Positions 1 to 25,965 of a DNA stretch of 32,946 nt are shown here, piece after piece; within the stretch, counting starts at the first letter, position 1; each line of letters begins with the position of its first letter. Under the pieces are notes generated by a model. It saw only the letters and a program-made list of their open reading frames with translations, was not told the origin of the DNA and did no database searches. Position numbers and translations under genes: made by a program. This DNA is from a virus (taxonomy: Duplodnaviria; Heunggongvirae; Uroviricota; Caudoviricetes), in IMG/VR virus record IMGVR_UViG_2713897042_000007; one strand, 5' to 3'.

Positions 1-996
1 TTATGGACGCATTATGGACATTCCTGACACCGGGTTAAGAGTCACTGCATCTTGTAAGAAATCCGGTGCAAAGTGTGCGTAGGTCATAGTTTGCTGAATG
101 TTAGAATGACCCAGGATGCGCTGCAATGTGATTATGTTACCTCCATTCATTATAAAATGTGTGGCAAATGTATGCCTCAAAACATGCACTGCCTGTCCGT
201 CAGGTAAATCGGGTTTTACTTCCCTGAGAGCGTTGCGCACTTTGTAGTAACTGGCATTAAAAAGCCTGCCTGAATTTTTGGTCTTGATCCGTTTAATCAG
301 GTCCTGCGAAACGGGAATTGTCCTGCGCTTTCCGTTTTTAGTTTTCATAAACGTAACCATCTGGTTAATGATGTGTTCAGCTTTTAAATTAGACACTTCA
401 CTCCAACGTCCACCAGTAGAAAGGCAGACCAGCGTTGCATTTAATTCATCGCCATCAAGCATGGATAACAGCCGCGTAATCTCTTCACTGGACAAAAAAG
501 CCATTTCCGTAACAGCTTCACGTAACCGCTTAACCTCACGGAACGGGTTGTGAGAGTGGTATTCACCGGCGTCAATTAACTTGGTGAACATCCCGCTCAT
601 TATTGCCAGATGCCGATTTACGCTGGCTGGTTTTAGACCATCGTTCATCATTACAACGCGATAATCAGTTATCGTTTTCTTTGTTAGCTGGTCTGCTCTG
701 GACACTCCCATTTCTGCAAATTTGGCGATTATTGTCGTTAAACGCCCTCGTTCAATATCTCCACGCTCATGTGATTTTCCGTGATATATCCACCATCTGC
801 CTAACAACTCTGTAAGAGTTCGGCGGTCGGCTGGCTTCTCTAACCACTCTTTGTTGTGATAATTAACCAGCACATGACGTTCGAATGCCTGAGCTTCACC
901 TTTAGTTTTAAATTTCCGCCTGATACGTTTTCCATCTGCACCCTGCGGTCTGACGTCCACTTCATAACGACCATCATCGAGCTTTTTAATAGACAT
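1..996 (-). CDS. int: P2-type tyrosine integrase
   Basis: 331-aa ORF ending at the window edge (stop at 1-3). C-terminal tyrosine-recombinase signature (HVLRHTFATH...GHSNIQQTMTYAH). GGAGG RBS upstream of the ATG at 994-996. Sits beside the C repressor as in P2. Confidence 0.93.
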   Translation of the reverse strand: MSIKKLDDGRYEVDVRPQGADGKRIRRKFKTKGEAQAFERHVLVNYHNKEWLEKPADRRTLTELLGRWWIYHGKSHERGDIERGRLTTIIAKFAEMGVSRADQLTKKTITDYRVVMMNDGLKPASVNRHLAIMSGMFTKLIDAGEYHSHNPFREVKRLREAVTEMAFLSSEEITRLLSMLDGDELNATLVCLSTGGRWSEVSNLKAEHIINQMVTFMKTKNGKRRTIPVSQDLIKRIKTKNSGRLFNASYYKVRNALREVKPDLPDGQAVHVLRHTFATHFIMNGGNIITLQRILGHSNIQQTMTYAHFAPDFLQDAVTLNPVSGMSIMRP

Positions 997-3073: not shown

Positions 3074-3286
3074 ATGCATACAGTTTCTGAAAATCAGTGC
3101 GGTAAATACGCATTACTGCTGCAACAGGCCAGAACCGAAGCACAGGCCGACGCAGCGACGCGCTTTTCTTCTCATCTTGACGCCATGATTCGCCATATCA
3201 CAAAGGCGGAGTTATCCCGCGTGGAGATAGTCGAGTTGCTCAGTCAGGAGTCTGCCAAATTCCATAATCTAGGACTCAATAAATAA
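3074..3286 (+). CDS. Hypothetical early protein (P2 orf80 position)
   Basis: 70-aa ORF from the internal ATG at 3074 with a GGAGA RBS. Syntenic with P2 early small ORFs. Confidence 0.55.
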
Positions 3287-3300
3287 CAGGGAAGTTGGAG

Positions 3301-3546
3301 ATGACAAATACAAAATGGTTCAGGAAACGCTTAACAGATTATCAACTTTCATTACTTAAAAAATTAGATGACAAGACTCCACTACATCCTTCAAGCGATG
3401 TCTTCCGCTCCTGTCCTAGTCGTGTGGAAAAAGCATTTATAGCAATGGGGAAATGGGGGCTTGTGACCAAATCAAGAGAAGGTTTCTGTATTACCGATAA
3501 TGGCCGGGAAATGATTGATTCTGCGGAGAGGGCATATAGCGAATGA
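3301..3546 (+). CDS. Hypothetical early protein (P2 orf81 position)
   Basis: ATG at 3301 preceded by AGGGAAG. The six-frame track starts at a TTG two codons earlier. Confidence 0.55.
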   Translation: MTNTKWFRKRLTDYQLSLLKKLDDKTPLHPSSDVFRSCPSRVEKAFIAMGKWGLVTKSREGFCITDNGREMIDSAERAYSE

Positions 3547-3833
3547 AAAATATATTGCTTAATAACTGGCTGAAGATTTCAGTCATGAAAAATGGTGATT
3601 TGTCGCTAGCTGATATTAAACGCGATAAAAACACTGGGGATATGGTGGAATCAACTATAGCCATTTATGCGGATAAATTAAATCTCTTGTCTGATGTGGT
3701 CAATTTACTTGTTAAACGCGCTGTATTTCATAAGCAAATTTCATCCGTGGATGAACTAACAAAATTAACGACAGAAATCGCCAGCTATTGCGCTGATGAA
3801 TTTAAGAAACTGAACGACAAAAGGAACTGGTAA
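3543..3833 (+). CDS. Hypothetical early protein (P2 orf82 position)
   Basis: 96-aa ORF translationally coupled to its neighbours (ATGA overlaps at both ends). Confidence 0.55.
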   Translation: MKNILLNNWLKISVMKNGDLSLADIKRDKNTGDMVESTIAIYADKLNLLSDVVNLLVKRAVFHKQISSVDELTKLTTEIASYCADEFKKLNDKRNW

Positions 3834-4057
3834 TGCCGGACAACGTAGATTTTATTCAGGAACAACAGGCTGAATTACTGGAGCGTCAGATTAACGCGGC
3901 AAGGGTAAAACATTGCGGTGCTTCTGCGCTGGTTTGCGAAGAGTGTGACGCGCCAATACCTGCTGCCCGTCGTGCGGCTTATCCGTCAGCCACGCGTTGT
4001 GTTTCCTGTCAGTCAGTCTTTGAAGCAAAAAACAAACATTACCGGAGAACGGCATGA
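3833..4057 (+). CDS. TraR/DksA-family C4 zinc-finger protein (P2 orf83 position)
   Basis: 74 aa with a C-x2-C ... C-x2-C arrangement (CEECDAPIP...CVSCQ), typical of the TraR/DksA zinc finger. Confidence 0.7.
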   Translation: MPDNVDFIQEQQAELLERQINAARVKHCGASALVCEECDAPIPAARRAAYPSATRCVSCQSVFEAKNKHYRRTA

Positions 4058-4329
4058 GTATTCGTATTGAAATTGGCGAACGTTATGTCGTTACCAGTGA
4101 CAGCTTTCAGTTTATTCTCCACGAGAAAAAGAGAGCGGAAAGCGGTAAAAACGCCGGTCAGGAATGGCTGGCAGTGGTTGGTTATTACCCGAAATTAAGC
4201 CAGCTCGTTTCCGGCCTGATGCATCACGATATTCTGACCGGAAGCGCAAAGTCTTTTGCTGATTTAAACGCGCAGGTTGAGCAACTCAGCAGGCGTTGTT
4301 CAGAGGCTTTTGGCTCATATGGCCGTTAA
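4054..4329 (+). CDS. Hypothetical protein upstream of A
   Basis: 91-aa ORF, coupled start (ATGA). Its 3' end overlaps the A start. Confidence 0.5.
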   Translation: MSIRIEIGERYVVTSDSFQFILHEKKRAESGKNAGQEWLAVVGYYPKLSQLVSGLMHHDILTGSAKSFADLNAQVEQLSRRCSEAFGSYGR

Positions 4330-6604
4330 AGCCTCCGGGCGTTTTGTCCCTCCGTCAGCATTTGCCGCAGGCACCGGTGAGACGTTTACCGGTGCTTATG
4401 CATGGAACGCGCCACGCGAGGCCGTCGGGCGCGAAAGACCCCTTACACGTGACGAGATGCGTCAGGTGCAAGGTGCTTTATCCACGATTAACCGCCTGCC
4501 TTACTTTTTGCGCTCGCTGTTTACTTCACGCTATGACTACATCCGGCGCAATAAAAGCCCGGTGCACGGGTTTTATTTCCTCACATCCACTTTTCAGCGT
4601 CGTTTATGGCCGCGCATTGAGCGTGTGAATCAGCGCCATGAAATGAACACCGACGCGTCGTTGCTGTTTCTGGCAGAGCGTGACCATTATGCGCGTCTGC
4701 CGGGGATGAATGATAAGGAGCTGAAAAAGTTTGCCGCCCGTATCTCATCGCAGCTTTTCATGATGTATGAGGAACTCTGCGATGCCTGGGTGGATGCGCA
4801 TGGCGAAAAAGAATCGCTGTTTACGGATGAGGCGCAGGCTCACCTCTATGGTCATGTTGCTGGTGCTGCACGTGCTTTCAATATTTCCCCGCTCTACTGG
4901 AAAAAATACCGTAAAGGACAGATGACCACGAGGCAGGCATATTCTGCCATTGCCCGCCTGTTTAACGATGAGTGGTGGATTAGTCAGCTTAAAGGCCAGC
5001 GTATGCGCTGGCATGAGGCGTTACTGATTGCTGTCGGGGAGGTCAATAAAGACCGTTCACCTTATGCCAGTAAACATGCCATTCGTGATGTGCGTGCACG
5101 CCGCCAGGCAAATCTGGAATTTCTTAAATCGTGTGACCTTGAAAACAGGGAAACCGGCGAACGCATCGACCTTATCAGTAAGGTGATGGGCAGTATTTCT
5201 AATCCTGAAATTCGCCGGATGGAGCTGATGAACACCATTGCCGGTATTGAGCGTTACGCCGCCGCAGAGGGTGATGTGGGGATGTTTATCACGCTTACCG
5301 CGCCGTCAAAGTATCACCCGACACGTCAGGTCGGAAAAGGCGAAAGTAAAACCGTCCAGCTAAATCACGGCTGGAACGATGAGGCATTTAATCCAAAGGA
5401 TGCGCAGCGTTATCTCTGCCATATCTGGAGCCTGATGCGCACGGCATTCAAGGATAATGATTTACAGGTCTACGGTTTGCGTGTCGTCGAGCCACACCAC
5501 GACGGAACGCCGCACTGGCATATGATGCTTTTTTGTAATCCACGCCAGCGTAACCAGATTATCGAAATCATGCGTCGCTATGCGCTCAAAGAGGATGGCG
5601 ACGAAAGAGGAGCCGCGCGAAACCGTTTTCAGGCAAAACATCTTAACCGGGGCGGTGCTGCGGGGTATATCGCAAAATACATCTCAAAAAACATCGATGG
5701 CTATGCACTGGATGGTCAGCTCGATAATGATACCGGCAGGCCGCTGAAAGATACTGCTGCGGCTGTTACCGCATGGGCGTCAACGTGGCGCATACCACAA
5801 TTTAAAACGGTTGGCCTGCCGACAATGGGGGCTTACCGTGAACTACGCAAACTGCCTCGCGGCGTCAGCATTGCTGATGAGTTTGACGAACGCGTCGAGG
5901 CTGCACGCGCCGCCGCAGACAGTGGTGATTTTGCGTTGTATATCAGCGCGCAGGGCGGGGCAAATGTCCCGCGCGATTGTCAGACTGTCAGGGTCGCCCG
6001 TAGCCCGTCGGATGACGTTAACGAGTACGAGGAAGAAGTCGAGAGAGTGGTCGGCATTTACGCGCCGCATCTCGGCGCGCGTCATATTCATATCACCAGA
6101 ACGACGGACTGGCGCATTGTTCCGAAAGTGCCGGTCGTTGAGCCTTTGACTTTAAAAAGCGGCATCGCCGCGCCTCGGAGTCCTGTCAATAACTGTGGAA
6201 AGCTCACCGGTGGTGATACTTCGTTACCGGCTCCCACACCTTCTGAACACGCCGCAGCAGTGCTTAATCTGGTTGATGACGGTGTTATCGAATGGAATGA
6301 CCCGGAGGTCGTGAGGGCGCTCAGGGGCGCATTAAAATACGGGCTGAGAACACCAAATCGTCAGCAGAGAAACGGAAGCCCGTTAAAACCACATGAAATT
6401 GCACCATCGGCCAGACTGACCCGGTCGGAAAGAATGCAAATTACCCGTATCCGCGTTGACCTTGCTCAGAACGGTATCAGGCCGCAGCGATGGGAGCTTG
6501 AGGCGCTGGCGCGTGGCGCGACCGTAAATTATGACGGGAAAAAATTCACGTATCCGGTCGCTGATGAGTGGCCGGGATTCTCAACAGTAATGGCGCGGAT
6601 ATAA
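4319..6604 (+). CDS. A: Rolling-circle replication initiator A (HUH endonuclease)
   Basis: Start at the in-frame ATG 4319 gives 761 aa, the P2 A length (track ORF from 4277 is 775 aa). HUH motif TPHWHMMLF and paired tyrosines GYIAKYISK. Confidence 0.92.
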   Translation: MAVKASGRFVPPSAFAAGTGETFTGAYAWNAPREAVGRERPLTRDEMRQVQGALSTINRLPYFLRSLFTSRYDYIRRNKSPVHGFYFLTSTFQRRLWPRIERVNQRHEMNTDASLLFLAERDHYARLPGMNDKELKKFAARISSQLFMMYEELCDAWVDAHGEKESLFTDEAQAHLYGHVAGAARAFNISPLYWKKYRKGQMTTRQAYSAIARLFNDEWWISQLKGQRMRWHEALLIAVGEVNKDRSPYASKHAIRDVRARRQANLEFLKSCDLENRETGERIDLISKVMGSISNPEIRRMELMNTIAGIERYAAAEGDVGMFITLTAPSKYHPTRQVGKGESKTVQLNHGWNDEAFNPKDAQRYLCHIWSLMRTAFKDNDLQVYGLRVVEPHHDGTPHWHMMLFCNPRQRNQIIEIMRRYALKEDGDERGAARNRFQAKHLNRGGAAGYIAKYISKNIDGYALDGQLDNDTGRPLKDTAAAVTAWASTWRIPQFKTVGLPTMGAYRELRKLPRGVSIADEFDERVEAARAAADSGDFALYISAQGGANVPRDCQTVRVARSPSDDVNEYEEEVERVVGIYAPHLGARHIHITRTTDWRIVPKVPVVEPLTLKSGIAAPRSPVNNCGKLTGGDTSLPAPTPSEHAAAVLNLVDDGVIEWNDPEVVRALRGALKYGLRTPNRQQRNGSPLKPHEIAPSARLTRSERMQITRIRVDLAQNGIRPQRWELEALARGATVNYDGKKFTYPVADEWPGFSTVMARI

Positions 6605-6816
6605 TGACAAAGATTCACAAAGTAAAGCTGCACGCAAGATATTTCAACCTTGTGCTGGAGGGAAAAGAAACGCACAGAATTTAGGGGGATAGCCGTTATC
6701 ATGTGTATGAAGCACTTGAAATGTATCTGCATCACTTGGGAGTGTGTCAACGGGGAATTTCCATCTATGTGATTTTTTGAGAGCAATGCAGTGAAGATAA
6801 AGATACTTATTATAAA

Positions 6817-6936
6817 TCAATGTGATAGATGGTGCCTCGCAAACGTAAATGATAGTTTTGAAGCTTCAGGGCTGATGTCGTTCATAAGACTGTGTTTACG
6901 CTATCATTTATGATAAAAATAATTAATTTTTATCAT
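6817..6936. promoter_or_regulatory. Putative promoter/operator of the cargo operon
   Basis: AT-rich region upstream of the 6961 start. Palindrome ATGATAAAAA-N7-TTTTTATCAT at 6910-6936. Related TGATAG/ATGATA copies at 6822-6830, 6846-6854 and, inverted, 6901-6909. Confidence 0.4.
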
Positions 6937-6960
6937 AAAGATTCAACAGAGGATATGTTG

Positions 6961-8466
6961 ATGAATCAACTAAAATCAATGAATATCAATAAGTTACTTT
7001 TGGATGTTGATAACCCTCGTTTCCCGACGTCAGCAGAAAATCAGCGTGATGCTATTGCCAAGATGCTTGACTTGCAGTACGACCGCATTTATCGCTTGGC
7101 TAAAGATATTGCTTCGAAAGGTTTAGATCCGTCTGAAAACATATTAGTTTATCCTAGTGAAGAGGAATCTGGCTTTTTCGTCGTTGCTGAAGGTAATCGT
7201 CGAGTTACAGCCCTTAAACTTTTACACTCTCCTAGACTTGCACCAACAGAAAAAGCACGGAAAGCTTTTGAAAAACTTAAGATTACTCAGCTTAAAGATA
7301 TTAATGTTATAGATAACTGCGTTCTTTTTGACGATGATGAATATGAGCATTGGGTCAATTTAAAGCATACTGGTCAAAATGCTGGAGTTGGAAGAGTTGA
7401 ATGGACTGCAACAGAAAAAGCACGACATCTGGCTAGGATGGGTAAGCAGTCATTTGGTAATCAAATACTTACATTTATAGAGTTCAATACTGATTTATAT
7501 AAAGAGATAATTGCTAAAAAAAGACTTTTAAAAATCACAAACATCACGCGTCTTTTTGGTGATTTAAAGGTGAGGGATTATTTTAATTTAAAAAGCATTA
7601 ATGGAGTTCTATACTCATATCAGCCTTATGAACGTTTTTGTGCACAATTAAAAAATATTTTAGATGTAATGATTGAAGAGGATGATAAAGGTAAGGCTTG
7701 TTTTACTGTTAATAGGATTCGTAGCCAAGATGACAGGGTTACATTTATTATTGAACAAAAAATAAAACCTTCAGAATCTCTTTTAGATAAGCCGTGGAGT
7801 TTACTAGAGCCTAAATCTTTTCTTACAGAGAAAAAACATGATTCTATTGACAAAAATGATGCATCTGTGAGTGTAAAGAAAGTAGGTCTTTCAGAAGGTG
7901 ATGCCTTAAAGAATACAGGTGTGGATAAACAGGAAGATGATTATTCTAGACATGTAGGCACAGAAGAGAGTAAATCTAAAGTTTCGGGTACGGAACAGAA
8001 TAAAAACAAGGGAAAAACTCCTCCTAAAGTAGATCGTAATGTGTTGGTGCCATCTTATGTGAAATTTAATTTTAGAGGGCATAAGAAATGCTCTAGAATA
8101 TTTAATGAGCTTAAGTCGCATCTGACATTTGATAACACCCCTAATGCTATCTCAATATTGTTGAGAATATTTATAGATCTCTCTGTAAGCACTTTTGTTG
8201 AAGAAAACAAGTTACAATTTAAGGAACCACATAGAACTCCAGGGCTTCATGATAAGGTTAAAATGTGTGCTAATTTCCTTCGGGAAAATAAAAAGATGAC
8301 GGGGAGTCAATGTACGGCTGTAATAACTTTCTCGAGCCAAATAACTAAACATGATGGTTCATTGCAGCAGTATGTACATAACCCACACTTAATTCCCTCA
8401 AAAGAGGCTGTCAACACTGAGTGGGATAACTTTGAGTTGTTATTAAGCCTTATTTGGAGTGAGTGA
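6961..8466 (+). CDS. ParB/Srx-like N-terminal domain protein with uncharacterised C-terminal region (cargo)
   Basis: About 501 aa from the ATG at 6961 (GAGGA 7 nt upstream; in-frame alternatives at 6955 and 6892). N-terminus has ParB-type motifs (DVDNPRF; VVAEGNRRVTALKLL, the GxRR box). Central K/E/S-rich low-complexity linker. Visibly AT-rich against flanking phage genes. Confidence 0.7.
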   Translation: MNQLKSMNINKLLLDVDNPRFPTSAENQRDAIAKMLDLQYDRIYRLAKDIASKGLDPSENILVYPSEEESGFFVVAEGNRRVTALKLLHSPRLAPTEKARKAFEKLKITQLKDINVIDNCVLFDDDEYEHWVNLKHTGQNAGVGRVEWTATEKARHLARMGKQSFGNQILTFIEFNTDLYKEIIAKKRLLKITNITRLFGDLKVRDYFNLKSINGVLYSYQPYERFCAQLKNILDVMIEEDDKGKACFTVNRIRSQDDRVTFIIEQKIKPSESLLDKPWSLLEPKSFLTEKKHDSIDKNDASVSVKKVGLSEGDALKNTGVDKQEDDYSRHVGTEESKSKVSGTEQNKNKGKTPPKVDRNVLVPSYVKFNFRGHKKCSRIFNELKSHLTFDNTPNAISILLRIFIDLSVSTFVEENKLQFKEPHRTPGLHDKVKMCANFLRENKKMTGSQCTAVITFSSQITKHDGSLQQYVHNPHLIPSKEAVNTEWDNFELLLSLIWSE

Positions 8467-8535
8467 GATTTGTCTACATCTGGACATGGATGTCCAGAAA
8501 CTGATAAACTACAAAATCAGGAATGAGAGGGATTT

Positions 8536-9420
8536 ATGAAATTTTATACTCCATTAAGATACCCCGGCGGGAAAGGTAAGTTATCTTACTTTTTAAAAGA
8601 TGTTATTGAAAAAAACTCGTTGAATGATGGAGCATATGCAGAACCTTACGCTGGTGGTGCAGGGGTGGCTTTAGAATTATTATTGGAAGAGTATGTCCGT
8701 AAAATCTATATAAATGATGCAGATTTTGCTGTTTATTCTTTTTGGTCATCTGTTGTTAGTGATACTGATGAGCTTTGCCGACTTATTAGCCGAGCAAAGA
8801 TAGATATGGATGAATGGTCTTTTCATCGCTATGTTATTTCGAATCCTTCTGAGTTTACTAAGCTTGAGGTTGGCTTTGCTGCGTTTTTCTTAAATAGAAC
8901 AAATCGTTCAGGTATTCTCAAGGCGGGGGTTATAGGCGGGAAATCACAAAATGGAAAATGGAAAATGGATGTTCGCTTTAACAGGGCGGATTTAATTTCA
9001 AGAATTGAGAAGATAGCAAATTATAATCAAAGAATAGTAGTAACTAATCTGGATGCTTTGGATTTTCTTGATGCCTTGAATTTTATGGATAATATGGGAA
9101 AGGTGGATAAAAATAAAATTCTTTTGTATTTGGATCCTCCTTACTATATTAAAGGGCAAGGGCTTTACAGGAATTTTTATGAGCATGATGACCATGTATT
9201 GGTTATGAAGAAACTCACAGAAATTAATTTCCCAAATTGGCTTGTTTCTTATGATAACGCTAAGGAAATTAAAGATATTTATAATGGATTTCCGCAAGTT
9301 GAGTATTCATTGCAATATACAGCGCATCTCAAAAAATCTGGAGAGGAAGTGATGATTTTTTCTCCTGAAATAATTATTCCTAATACCCTGAAAGGGGTCT
9401 CAATTCCAACTTGCGCCTGA
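8536..9420 (+). CDS. Dam-family (D12 class) N6-adenine DNA methyltransferase (cargo)
   Basis: 294 aa. N-terminal RYPGGKGKL, AdoMet-binding EPYAGGAG and catalytic DPPY align to the same positions as in E. coli Dam. RBS GAGAGGG upstream. AT-rich, co-oriented with the gene before it. Confidence 0.85.
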   Translation: MKFYTPLRYPGGKGKLSYFLKDVIEKNSLNDGAYAEPYAGGAGVALELLLEEYVRKIYINDADFAVYSFWSSVVSDTDELCRLISRAKIDMDEWSFHRYVISNPSEFTKLEVGFAAFFLNRTNRSGILKAGVIGGKSQNGKWKMDVRFNRADLISRIEKIANYNQRIVVTNLDALDFLDALNFMDNMGKVDKNKILLYLDPPYYIKGQGLYRNFYEHDDHVLVMKKLTEINFPNWLVSYDNAKEIKDIYNGFPQVEYSLQYTAHLKKSGEEVMIFSPEIIIPNTLKGVSIPTCA

Positions 9421-9567
9421 TTTTACTTATTTTTTGTCAGTAAGTAATTAGTTTGGTGCATTTATTTGCATTCATTTTTAAATGCCAGTTCTGGTATCTA
9501 ACATCAGTGCTGGCGCATTCTAACCATTACTGCTGCACTGCATTTAAAGCCCTGCATGAAGCGGGCG

Positions 9568-18061: not shown

Positions 18062-18491
18062 TGCCGTCACGGTGCTGAAAACAAGCCCCGAGATGCTGCG
18101 GATATTCGTGGATAACGGGAGTATTGCCTCCACACTGGCGACGTCGCTGTCATTCGAAAAGCGTTACACGCTCAATGTCATTGTGACCGATTTTACCGGT
18201 GATTTTGACCTGCTCATCGTGCCGGTGCTGGCGTGGCTGCGGGAAAATCAGCCCGACATCATGACCACCGACGAAGGTCAGAAAAAGGGCTTCACGTTTT
18301 ATGCAGACATCAACAATGACAGCAGCTTTGATATCAGCATCAGCCTGATGCTGACCGAGCGCACGCTGGTCAGTGAGGTTGACGGTGCGCTGCATGTGAA
18401 GAATATCCCGGAACCTCTGCCGCCGGAGCCGGTCACCCGCCCGGTGGAGCTTTATATCAATGGTGAACTGGTGAGCAAGTGGGATGAATGA
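18024..18491 (+). CDS. R: Tail completion protein R
   Basis: 155 aa, the P2 R length. Confidence 0.88.
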   Translation: MLKPDSLRRALTDAVTVLKTSPEMLRIFVDNGSIASTLATSLSFEKRYTLNVIVTDFTGDFDLLIVPVLAWLRENQPDIMTTDEGQKKGFTFYADINNDSSFDISISLMLTERTLVSEVDGALHVKNIPEPLPPEPVTRPVELYINGELVSKWDE

Positions 18492-18936
18492 GTTTAAGCG
18501 TTTTGAAGACCGGCTGACCGGACTTATTGAATCGCTGTCACCGTCAGGGCGTCGGCGACTGAGTGCCGAACTGGCGAAACGTCTGCGGCAGAGTCAGCAG
18601 CGTCGGGTGATGGCACAGAAAGCCCCGGACGGCACCCCCTACGCGCCACGCCAGCAGCAGAGCGCCAGAAAAAAGACCGGTCGCGTTAAGCGAAAAATGT
18701 TTGCGAAACTTATCACCAGTCGTTTTTTGCATATCCGCGCCAGCCCGGAACAGGCATCAATGGAATTTTACGGCGGGAAGTCACCGAAAATCGCCAGTGT
18801 GCATCAGTTCGGTCTGTCGGAAGAAACCCGGAAAGACGGTAAGAAAATTGATTATCCGGCGCGTCCTCTGCTCGGCTTCACCGGTGAGGATGTACAGATG
18901 ATTGAAGAGATTATCCTGGCTCACCTCGACCGTTAG
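18484..18936 (+). CDS. S: Tail completion protein S
   Basis: 150 aa, the P2 S length. Confidence 0.88.
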   Translation: MNEFKRFEDRLTGLIESLSPSGRRRLSAELAKRLRQSQQRRVMAQKAPDGTPYAPRQQQSARKKTGRVKRKMFAKLITSRFLHIRASPEQASMEFYGGKSPKIASVHQFGLSEETRKDGKKIDYPARPLLGFTGEDVQMIEEIILAHLDR

Positions 18937-19002
18937 TTGTGCCATTCCCGACACCTCATCGTCACATTGCCGCCGGTATGACCCGGCGGCATCCTTCCCG
19001 TT

Positions 19003-19638
19003 ATGAACACTCTCGCAAATATTCAGGAAATCGCGCGCGCACTGCGCAACATGATCCGCATCGGCCTTGTCGTCGAAACCGACCTTAACGCCGGTCGCTG
19101 CCGTGTGCAGACCGGCGGCATGTGCACTGACTGGCTTCAGTGGCTGACCCATCGTGCCGGTCGTTCGCGCACATGGTGGGCACCTTCCGTGGGGGAGCAG
19201 GTGCTGATTCTGGCCGTGGGCGGTGAACTCGACACGGCGTTCGTTCTGCCGGGGATTTATTCCGGCGATAACCCCGCGCCGTCTGCGTCGGCGGATGCCC
19301 TGCATATCCGTTTCCCTGACGGGGCGGTGATTGAATATGAACCTGAAACCAGTGCACTCACGGTAAGCGGAATTAAAACGGCTAGCGTGACGGCTTCTGA
19401 TTCTGTTACTGCCACGGTGCCGGTGGTCATGGTGAAAGCATCAACCCGCGTCACCCTGGACACACCGGAGGTGGTCTGCACCAACAGGCTGATTACCGGC
19501 ACGCTGGAAGTGCAGAAGGGCGGGACGATGCGCGGCAACATTGAACACACCGGCGGTGAACTCTCATCAAACGGTAAGGTACTGCATACCCATAAACACC
19601 CCGGCGACAGCGGCGGCACAACCGGGAGCCCTCTATGA
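19003..19638 (+). CDS. V: Baseplate spike protein V
   Basis: 211 aa, the P2 V length. Confidence 0.9.
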   Translation: MNTLANIQEIARALRNMIRIGLVVETDLNAGRCRVQTGGMCTDWLQWLTHRAGRSRTWWAPSVGEQVLILAVGGELDTAFVLPGIYSGDNPAPSASADALHIRFPDGAVIEYEPETSALTVSGIKTASVTASDSVTATVPVVMVKASTRVTLDTPEVVCTNRLITGTLEVQKGGTMRGNIEHTGGELSSNGKVLHTHKHPGDSGGTTGSPL

Positions 19639-25122: not shown

Positions 25123-25965
25123 ATGAAAAAAGAATTGTTTGGACGTTGCCCGTTTGATCTTGACGAAGATGTAAAAAAAATAGCCGCGATAAATAAATAT
25201 ATCCATGCAAAATTTGAGGAGCATAAAAATAAAATAGACAACCTAAAGGGTGTGGAACAAAAATTGATGGTCTTACAGTACTTTAATGTACTGAATGAAC
25301 TTAGTAATCAGGCTATCTCTTCTTTGAATATAGGAGCCTTTTCAGCATCGGAAGTATTAGCTAGGGTTATAATAGAACAGGCTGCCAATCAATTTTATAT
25401 AGCAATAGATGATGGCGAAAATGCACAAGCGTTACTCAAGGCTAGTAAGAAATTAGTTCATAGTAATGGAAAACGGTGGCTGGAGTGTTTAAAATCCAAA
25501 GGAATGACTAATCCAGCAGCAAATGAAAGGATTCGCATGGGAAAAGAACTAACTGATCTATTTAATAGATTGTGGCCAAATACACCTGAATATCCAGGAA
25601 CCAGAAAACTTTTTGAATTAATTGGCTGGGAAACACACTATCATGCCCATTACGTTCCCCTTTGTGATTCAATACATACATTCTCTGATGATATGGTAAA
25701 TATAGTATCTCTATATAATGCAATCCAAAGTGATGAAACTACTGCTATCGAATTCATTCTTGCAGTTAAACAAGAAAATAAACGGCTGGCAATTTATAAT
25801 TTTGTAATTGCTACGGCCCTTCGGTGTGAGGCCTTAGTAAATGTATTTAACTCTTTAGGTTATCAGGATATTATAACAGAAATGACACCAACAATAGATA
25901 CAGTCAACCAGACTATAATTCGATATGATGATTTTGATCATTCCAGAATTGATGATTGTCAATAA
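25123..25965 (+). CDS. Hypothetical cargo protein (position of P2 Z/fun)
   Basis: 280-aa ORF with AGGAGA RBS and a TATAAT-like element about 40 bp upstream. Strongly AT-rich. No catalytic motif I can recognise. Confidence 0.7.
   Translation: MKKELFGRCPFDLDEDVKKIAAINKYIHAKFEEHKNKIDNLKGVEQKLMVLQYFNVLNELSNQAISSLNIGAFSASEVLARVIIEQAANQFYIAIDDGENAQALLKASKKLVHSNGKRWLECLKSKGMTNPAANERIRMGKELTDLFNRLWPNTPEYPGTRKLFELIGWETHYHAHYVPLCDSIHTFSDDMVNIVSLYNAIQSDETTAIEFILAVKQENKRLAIYNFVIATALRCEALVNVFNSLGYQDIITEMTPTIDTVNQTIIRYDDFDHSRIDDCQ

Follow-up and report, generated by a model that had tools for sequence, protein, structure and literature searches.

The open reading frame at positions 8536..9420 of the window, i.e., of the whole stretch of 32,946 nucleotides analysed here, very likely encodes the methyltransferase half of PD-λ-5, a named, experimentally validated and thus already known two-gene anti-phage system. 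This identification is based on near-identity to the validated protein, on the same genomic position and on the preserved pairing with a ParB/HEPN protein. The original prediction had described the gene as a Dam-family methyltransferase carried as prophage cargo, which could protect DNA from a linked effector. Indeed, the upstream gene encodes a conserved partner (PD-λ-5A), and the pair corresponds to validated PD-λ-5; that the two genes together are a named and tested system had been overlooked. The features discussed below are collected in Table 1.

Table 1. Features of the window in and around the cargo island
Feature	Position	Strand	Evidence or remark
P2 orf91 (DUF3850) remnant, 82 nt, right 3' of replication gene A	6604..6685	+	RefSeq, P2 position
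Cargo island at P2 hotspot #1, flanked by replication gene A and cos/portal gene Q	6686..9503		2818 bp, GC 0.35
Perfect 14-nt inverted repeat, TTTATGATAAAAAT / ATTTTTATCATAAA, 5 nt apart	6907..6939		22 nt 5' of the PD-λ-5A start
PD-λ-5A, 501 aa, ParB/Srx N-terminal and HEPN-like C-terminal domain	6961..8466	+	
A-B spacer, 69 nt	8467..8535	+	9-nt inverted repeat and extended -10-like element
Probable PD-λ-5B, D12-class (alpha-type) DNA methyltransferase	8536..9420	+	PF02086, PADLOC, identity to RCQ13838.1, fold

PD-λ-5 in a P2-like prophage

PD-λ-5 was isolated when genomic fragments of E. coli were subjected to a functional selection against λvir (Vassallo et al. 2022, Nat Microbiol, PMC9519451). 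According to the supplementary table of that study, it originates from ECOR7 (contig QOWS01000001, 264599-267059) and consists of RCQ13837.1 and RCQ13838.1, labelled 'ParB/HEPN, methyltransferase'; section 8 places it between the replication endonuclease and portal genes of a P2-like prophage. [quoted passage not shown] A literature search for the PD-λ-5 recognition motif, P2-prophage methylomes and the mechanism yielded only the screen that first described the system, census papers, and reviews.

The methyltransferase in the window is identical to RCQ13838.1 at 291 of 294 residues and belongs to the same 90% identity cluster. The three substitutions relative to the ECOR7 protein (A180V, V288G, and I290M) are expected to make no functional difference. 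PD-λ-5A likewise falls within the same cluster of E. coli proteins (at least 90% identity), its likeness to RCQ13837.1 holding at cluster level only. Both proteins are matched over their full length by the corresponding PADLOC models, i.e., PD-Lambda-5_A (PDLC03998, 557 bits) and PD-Lambda-5_B (PDLC04018, 403 bits), and the methyltransferase additionally matches the MTase_II model PDLC03358 (343 bits). From the start of A to the stop of B, the pair spans 2460 bp, the same length as the ECOR7 locus (264599-267059), with which it shares both the gene order and the P2 A-Q hotspot.

The methyltransferase gene starts with ATG, preceded 6 nt upstream by the Shine-Dalgarno sequence GAGAGGGA, and encodes 294 amino acids. 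The motifs RYPGGK (motif X, aa 8-13, nt 8557-8574), EPYAGGAG (motif I, aa 36-43, nt 8641-8664), and DPPY (motif IV, aa 200-203, nt 9133-9144) are invariant among the 25 homologues aligned, and their succession, with the variable (target-recognition) region between motifs I and IV, is the order of the D12 class. Residues 9-255 align with positions 1-245 of the 253-position profile of Pfam PF02086 (MethyltransfD12), with 60.1 bits against a gathering score of 22 (E 3.6e-16), and the AlphaFold model (pLDDT 78.6) resembles M.CbeI (Foldseek E 2e-12), E. coli Dam (6e-11), and DpnM (8e-10). These family and fold matches are far above chance. Thus, the D12-class assignment made earlier is upheld by profile, motifs, and fold together.

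The window represents a nearly complete P2-like prophage, which begins with int (1..996, minus strand), an HTH repressor gene, cox, B, and replication gene A and continues beyond the island with Q, P, and the head, lysis, and tail genes up to D. Homology to the P2-like backbone (Yersinia phage vB_YpM_50) ends at 6685 and restarts at 9504, which sets the limits of the cargo. The GC content of the methyltransferase gene equals that of the island, compared with 0.52 in the rest of the window; the gene is therefore, as had been claimed, AT-rich and unlike the phage backbone, and it is prophage cargo, since the low-GC island interrupts that backbone at the A-Q hotspot. Where P2 carries orf91, the RefSeq annotation of an identical locus in E. 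coli shows a DUF3850 pseudogene that is frameshifted and partial, and the remnant is a scar of past cargo exchange at hotspot #1. The A-Q position of the P2 reference genome (NC_001895) holds orf91, tin, and old, and the annotation of that genome contains no methyltransferase, which agrees with the earlier statement that P2 itself encodes none. Other P2-like phages carry Fic/VbhT, cytolethal distending toxin (CDT), or a DUF4209 protein in this slot. Near-identical copies of the whole island are present in 22 of 5426 complete E. coli genomes, the DNA is at least 99.3% identical to 15 complete E. coli genomes among the matches listed, and Salmonella P2-like prophages harbour an 87%-identical A-B pair in the same slot. 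Among deposited phage genomes, no methyltransferase with more than 51% identity was found; on plasmids, there were no close copies of PD-λ-5A.

A second low-GC patch (GC 0.34-0.36), flanked by genes G (tail-fibre assembly) and FI (sheath), lies at P2 hotspot #2, which is the position of fun(Z) in P2. It contains an ORF of 280 aa (25123..25965, plus strand) that matches Pfam DUF5677 (E 5e-10), has no hit in PADLOC, and is a candidate for uncharacterised defence cargo. The non-essential orf30, which P2 carries between its tail genes S and V, has no counterpart in the window, where S (18484..18936) and V (19003..19638) are nearly adjacent across the orf30 site (18936..19003).

The partner protein and the pairing of the two genes

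The start of PD-λ-5A was placed at ATG 6961 and not at the mechanically assigned GTG 6892, based on the ribosome-binding site AGAGGA (6947-6953), the RefSeq annotation, and the PADLOC alignment. The protein comprises a ParB/Srx domain (aa 1-125), a helical middle part (128-290), a disordered linker (290-352), and a four-helix C-terminal domain (aa 375-498) that is HEPN by fold. A Pfam search of PD-λ-5A matched no family. In an alignment of 33 homologues, three groups of residues are invariant: E77-G78-N79-R80-R81 within the first domain, a second block comprising W131, H136, G138, N140, G142, and W148, and R402, Y471, H473, and N474 in the C-terminal part. The first group displays the G-x-R-R-x-x-A spacing of the arginine box of ParB proteins. 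Among known structures, the C-terminal domain resembles the HEPN folds of Roquin (9.4), AbiA (8.5), and HepN toxins (8.2 and 7.9), as well as those of sacsin, Csm6, and AbiV. Fold matches thus independently confirm the ParB and HEPN labels, which had been assigned by weak HHpred matches (ParBc with 96% and DUF4145 with 36% probability; PMC9519451).

Nevertheless, the HEPN-like domain is atypical, as judged from the alignment. The catalytic motif Rx4-6H is not a family-wide feature, as an arginine 4-6 residues before invariant H473 occurs in 4 of the 33 homologues, and RTPGLH (aa 425-430) of the protein in the window is common to about half of them. A search of PD-λ-5A for PD-(D/E)xK, HNH, GIY-YIG, and PLD nuclease folds found none. 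A classical type II restriction-modification (RM) system was accordingly rejected because PD-λ-5A possesses no recognised restriction-endonuclease fold. The window does resemble such systems in having a methyltransferase beside an effector gene and in the expected self/non-self logic, but differs in the ParB/Srx and HEPN-like domains of the partner. A ParB/Srx fold with an arginine-rich box is also coupled to an effector and to DNA modification in DndB and in the DUF262 domains of GmrSD, BrxU, and SspE; these proteins have His-Me or DUF1524 nuclease partners and sense modified DNA or regulate phosphorothioation. PD-λ-5 differs from them in using base methylation as its modification and in the HEPN-like C-terminus of PD-λ-5A.

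The two genes, which lie on the same strand in the window, are also found together far beyond it. A species-level scan (one genome per species) detected at least 581 relatives of the methyltransferase, the best 80 of which (46-71% identity) were examined; two of these loci are cut off upstream, leaving 78 that are assessable. The 80 relatives are from Proteobacteria, Bacteroidota, Nitrospinota, and Acidobacteriota, a Clostridium, a Saccharibacteria genome, and others. Directly 5' of the methyltransferase, a PD-λ-5A homologue is encoded at 67 of the 78 loci (one of them reassigned by hand, as the stop-to-stop ORFs overlap), an ABC-ATPase at 9 (about 12%), a fragmented A at 1, and something else at 2. 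An effector-type gene, i.e., either of the first two, is therefore present at 76 loci. The same-strand order, with the A homologue directly 5' of the B homologue, likewise occurs in an integrase-bearing island of Desulfoluna, in a Shewanella Mu-like prophage (between mor and lysis genes), and beside Tn7-like genes in Undibacterium. In all 51 comparable loci, conservation is higher for B than for A (mean identity 52% vs. 30%), which fits a constrained modifier and a fast-evolving sensor or effector. The conserved pairing indicates that the methyltransferase is not an orphan but belongs, as the conserved half, to a mobile module of two genes.

The ABC-ATPases that replace PD-λ-5A (AAA_15/AAA_21, ~580 aa, at about 3200-4960 of loci L025, L031, L032, L039, L055, L058, L059, L078, and L082) are from Neisseria, Haemophilus, Acinetobacter, Cellvibrio, and a Burkholderiaceae genome, where the methyltransferases are about 48-55% identical to that in the window. 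In PADLOC, they give OLD-, Gabija (GajA)-, PARIS (AriA)-, and PtuA-like matches, and together with the methyltransferase they may form an undescribed methylation-linked ATPase system. In a Thiothrix MAG, the gene 5' of a 51%-identical methyltransferase (gene at L046:3596-4993) encodes a protein of 466 aa that is matched by neither Pfam nor PADLOC and may represent a third partner type.

The spacer between the two genes contains the inverted repeat TCTGGACAT/ATGTCCAGA (8479-8487 / 8490-8498), followed by an extended -10-like element (TG at 8502-8503 and TAAACT at 8505-8510, i.e., TG-A-TAAACT). A hairpin followed by TGnTAnnnT is usual in spacer-bearing divergent loci (the A-B gaps of L005, L007, L009, L015, L017, and L022). 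Across the island as a whole, the scan for promoters and terminators was not above chance (12 matches vs. 10.7 expected), and the spacer element is a candidate promoter of the methyltransferase, hinted at solely by the position kept in other loci. The inverted repeat upstream of PD-λ-5A overlaps a promoter-like match (6895..6923) and could possibly be an operator, a promoter region, or a site bound by a protein, perhaps by the ParB-type protein itself.

It might also be considered that A and B form a single obligate complex of the kind known from BREX or type I/III systems, in which both proteins are needed for methylation and interference, and B belongs to the sensing machine and is thus more than an antidote. 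The tight synteny, in which 2-10 nt separate stop and start in Bacteroidota loci, points in this direction, as do the missing stand-alone nuclease fold of PD-λ-5A and the published description as a compacted system (PMC9519451). However, many loci, that of the window among them, have a gap of 45-92 nt with promoter-like elements before B, which suggests separate expression, and the fact that methyltransferases of the same clade also pair with an unrelated ABC-ATPase argues for a self-sufficient module. We therefore regard an obligate complex as unlikely and favour a methyltransferase that acts on its own beside its partner.

Target sequence and target base

E. coli Dam, T4 Dam, and DpnM share the alpha-class fold and the motif order X, I, target-recognition region, IV with the methyltransferase in the window. 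Nonetheless, these three are GATC-specific D12 enzymes (TIGR00571), whereas the enzyme in the window scores 47 bits with the NCBIfam dam model TIGR00571, below its cut-off of 114.85. When aligned by structure, it is 16-18% identical to E. coli Dam. A profile built from 25 family members and run against all PDB sequences retrieved only M.CbeI (7M6B, E 6e-22), with neither E. coli Dam nor DpnM at E <= 1, and no T4 Dam chain was among the results of the sequence or fold searches. A Dam orthologue was rejected on these three grounds (model score, identity, and a profile that does not retrieve Dam). Thus, the label 'Dam-family' given earlier is valid at the level of the D12 class but fails at that of the Dam family model.

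The specificity of the methyltransferase is very probably not GATC. Cloning of PD-λ-5 required a K-12 host deleted for the mrr region, and the authors singled out mrr (PMC9519451); MG1655 is already Dam-methylated and tolerates Dam methylation. That such a host was needed although K-12 is dam+ mrr+ argues for active, non-GATC methylation. In addition, λvir and T7 are restricted although they were presumably grown on dam+ E. coli, and a GATC mark could not separate them from self. The earlier suggestion that the specificity may differ from GATC is thus favoured indirectly, by the host requirement and by the restriction of these two phages.

The target base is a separate matter. The closest solved relative by both sequence and fold is M.CbeI of Caldicellulosiruptor bescii, which, according to the depositors of 7M6B, is an alpha-class N4-cytosine methyltransferase carrying DPPY. 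It belongs to a conventional type II system, whereas the partner of the methyltransferase in the window is unrelated to any classical restriction enzyme. Since M.CbeI shares DPPY and is nevertheless reported to modify cytosine at N4, the motif set, which had been read as that of an N6-adenine enzyme, is no proof of N6-adenine chemistry, even though all of its motifs are present. One might therefore ask whether the methyltransferase is itself an N4-cytosine enzyme, considering that M.CbeI is the sole solved structure retrieved by both the single protein and the family profile and that this profile passes over Dam and DpnM. Such chemistry appears improbable, as the identity to M.CbeI is only about 22% and DPPY is typical of adenine enzymes. 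Moreover, mrr, which was singled out in the published work, is a sensor of m6A and m5C, and T-even DNA, in which all cytosine is hypermodified, is nonetheless the best target. Based on the emphasis on mrr and on the T-even phages as best targets, adenine is the more likely target base.

A possible mechanism and its competitors

It is reasonable to assume that PD-λ-5, carried by the P2-like prophage in the A-Q cargo hotspot, would be expressed from the lysogen. The methyltransferase would then methylate a short non-GATC motif on the chromosome and the prophage and thereby provide a self mark, whereas PD-λ-5A would engage unmarked DNA through its ParB/Srx domain, possibly in a nucleotide-triphosphate-dependent manner. 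The effector step could be performed by the HEPN-like domain of PD-λ-5A or by an activity of the ParB domain itself. Within such an RM-like module, the methyltransferase would serve as both the 'M' component and the antidote. The parts of this scheme differ in their strength: we are quite confident of the identity of the methyltransferase as PD-λ-5B and of its role, while the self-marking step seems rather probable. The strong activity against T-even phages would be unusual for a methylation-gated nuclease and counts against the scheme. The A-B pair may also have a stabilising, addiction-like side effect, which is common for RM-like pairs.

In a wider and more speculative reading, the methyltransferase clade would constitute a portable self-marking cassette for unrelated effectors that are not restriction enzymes, and PD-λ-5 would stand for a class of methylation-gated systems distinct from RM types I-IV; in PD-λ-5, a nucleotide-switch ParB would read the methylation, and a non-canonical HEPN, which is no DNA endonuclease, would execute the response. 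Taken as one joint claim, this is tentative and somewhat doubtful.

Many phages carry methyltransferases for anti-restriction, and relatives of the methyltransferase reside in Mu-like and other prophages; one could thus imagine that the enzyme methylates the DNA of P2 progeny so that it escapes restriction in new hosts. This is very improbable because the gene is situated in the cargo slot for lysogenic conversion, outside any lytic operon, is constantly linked to an effector-like partner, and has homologous pairs in places other than phages, namely a Tn7-like element and chromosomal islands. Still less credible is an orphan epigenetic methyltransferase with no defence role that, like Dam or CcrM, remodels expression in the lysogen: the D12 class does include regulatory orphans, and new methylation in the lysogen could conceivably have side effects on transcription, but a solitary enzyme was rejected on account of the effector-type gene directly upstream at 76 of the 78 assessable loci, the pair is a validated defence system, and the near-obligate A-B pairing makes epigenetic regulation unlikely as a primary role.

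The correct annotation of the window would thus be that of a known, validated defence system on a prophage, the lysogen of which would be broadly phage resistant. Such a prophage would add a foreign methylation pattern that is not tolerated by K-12 type IV restriction. Carriage of PD-λ-5 therefore bears on the host range in phage therapy and on the cloning and transfer of DNA from such strains.
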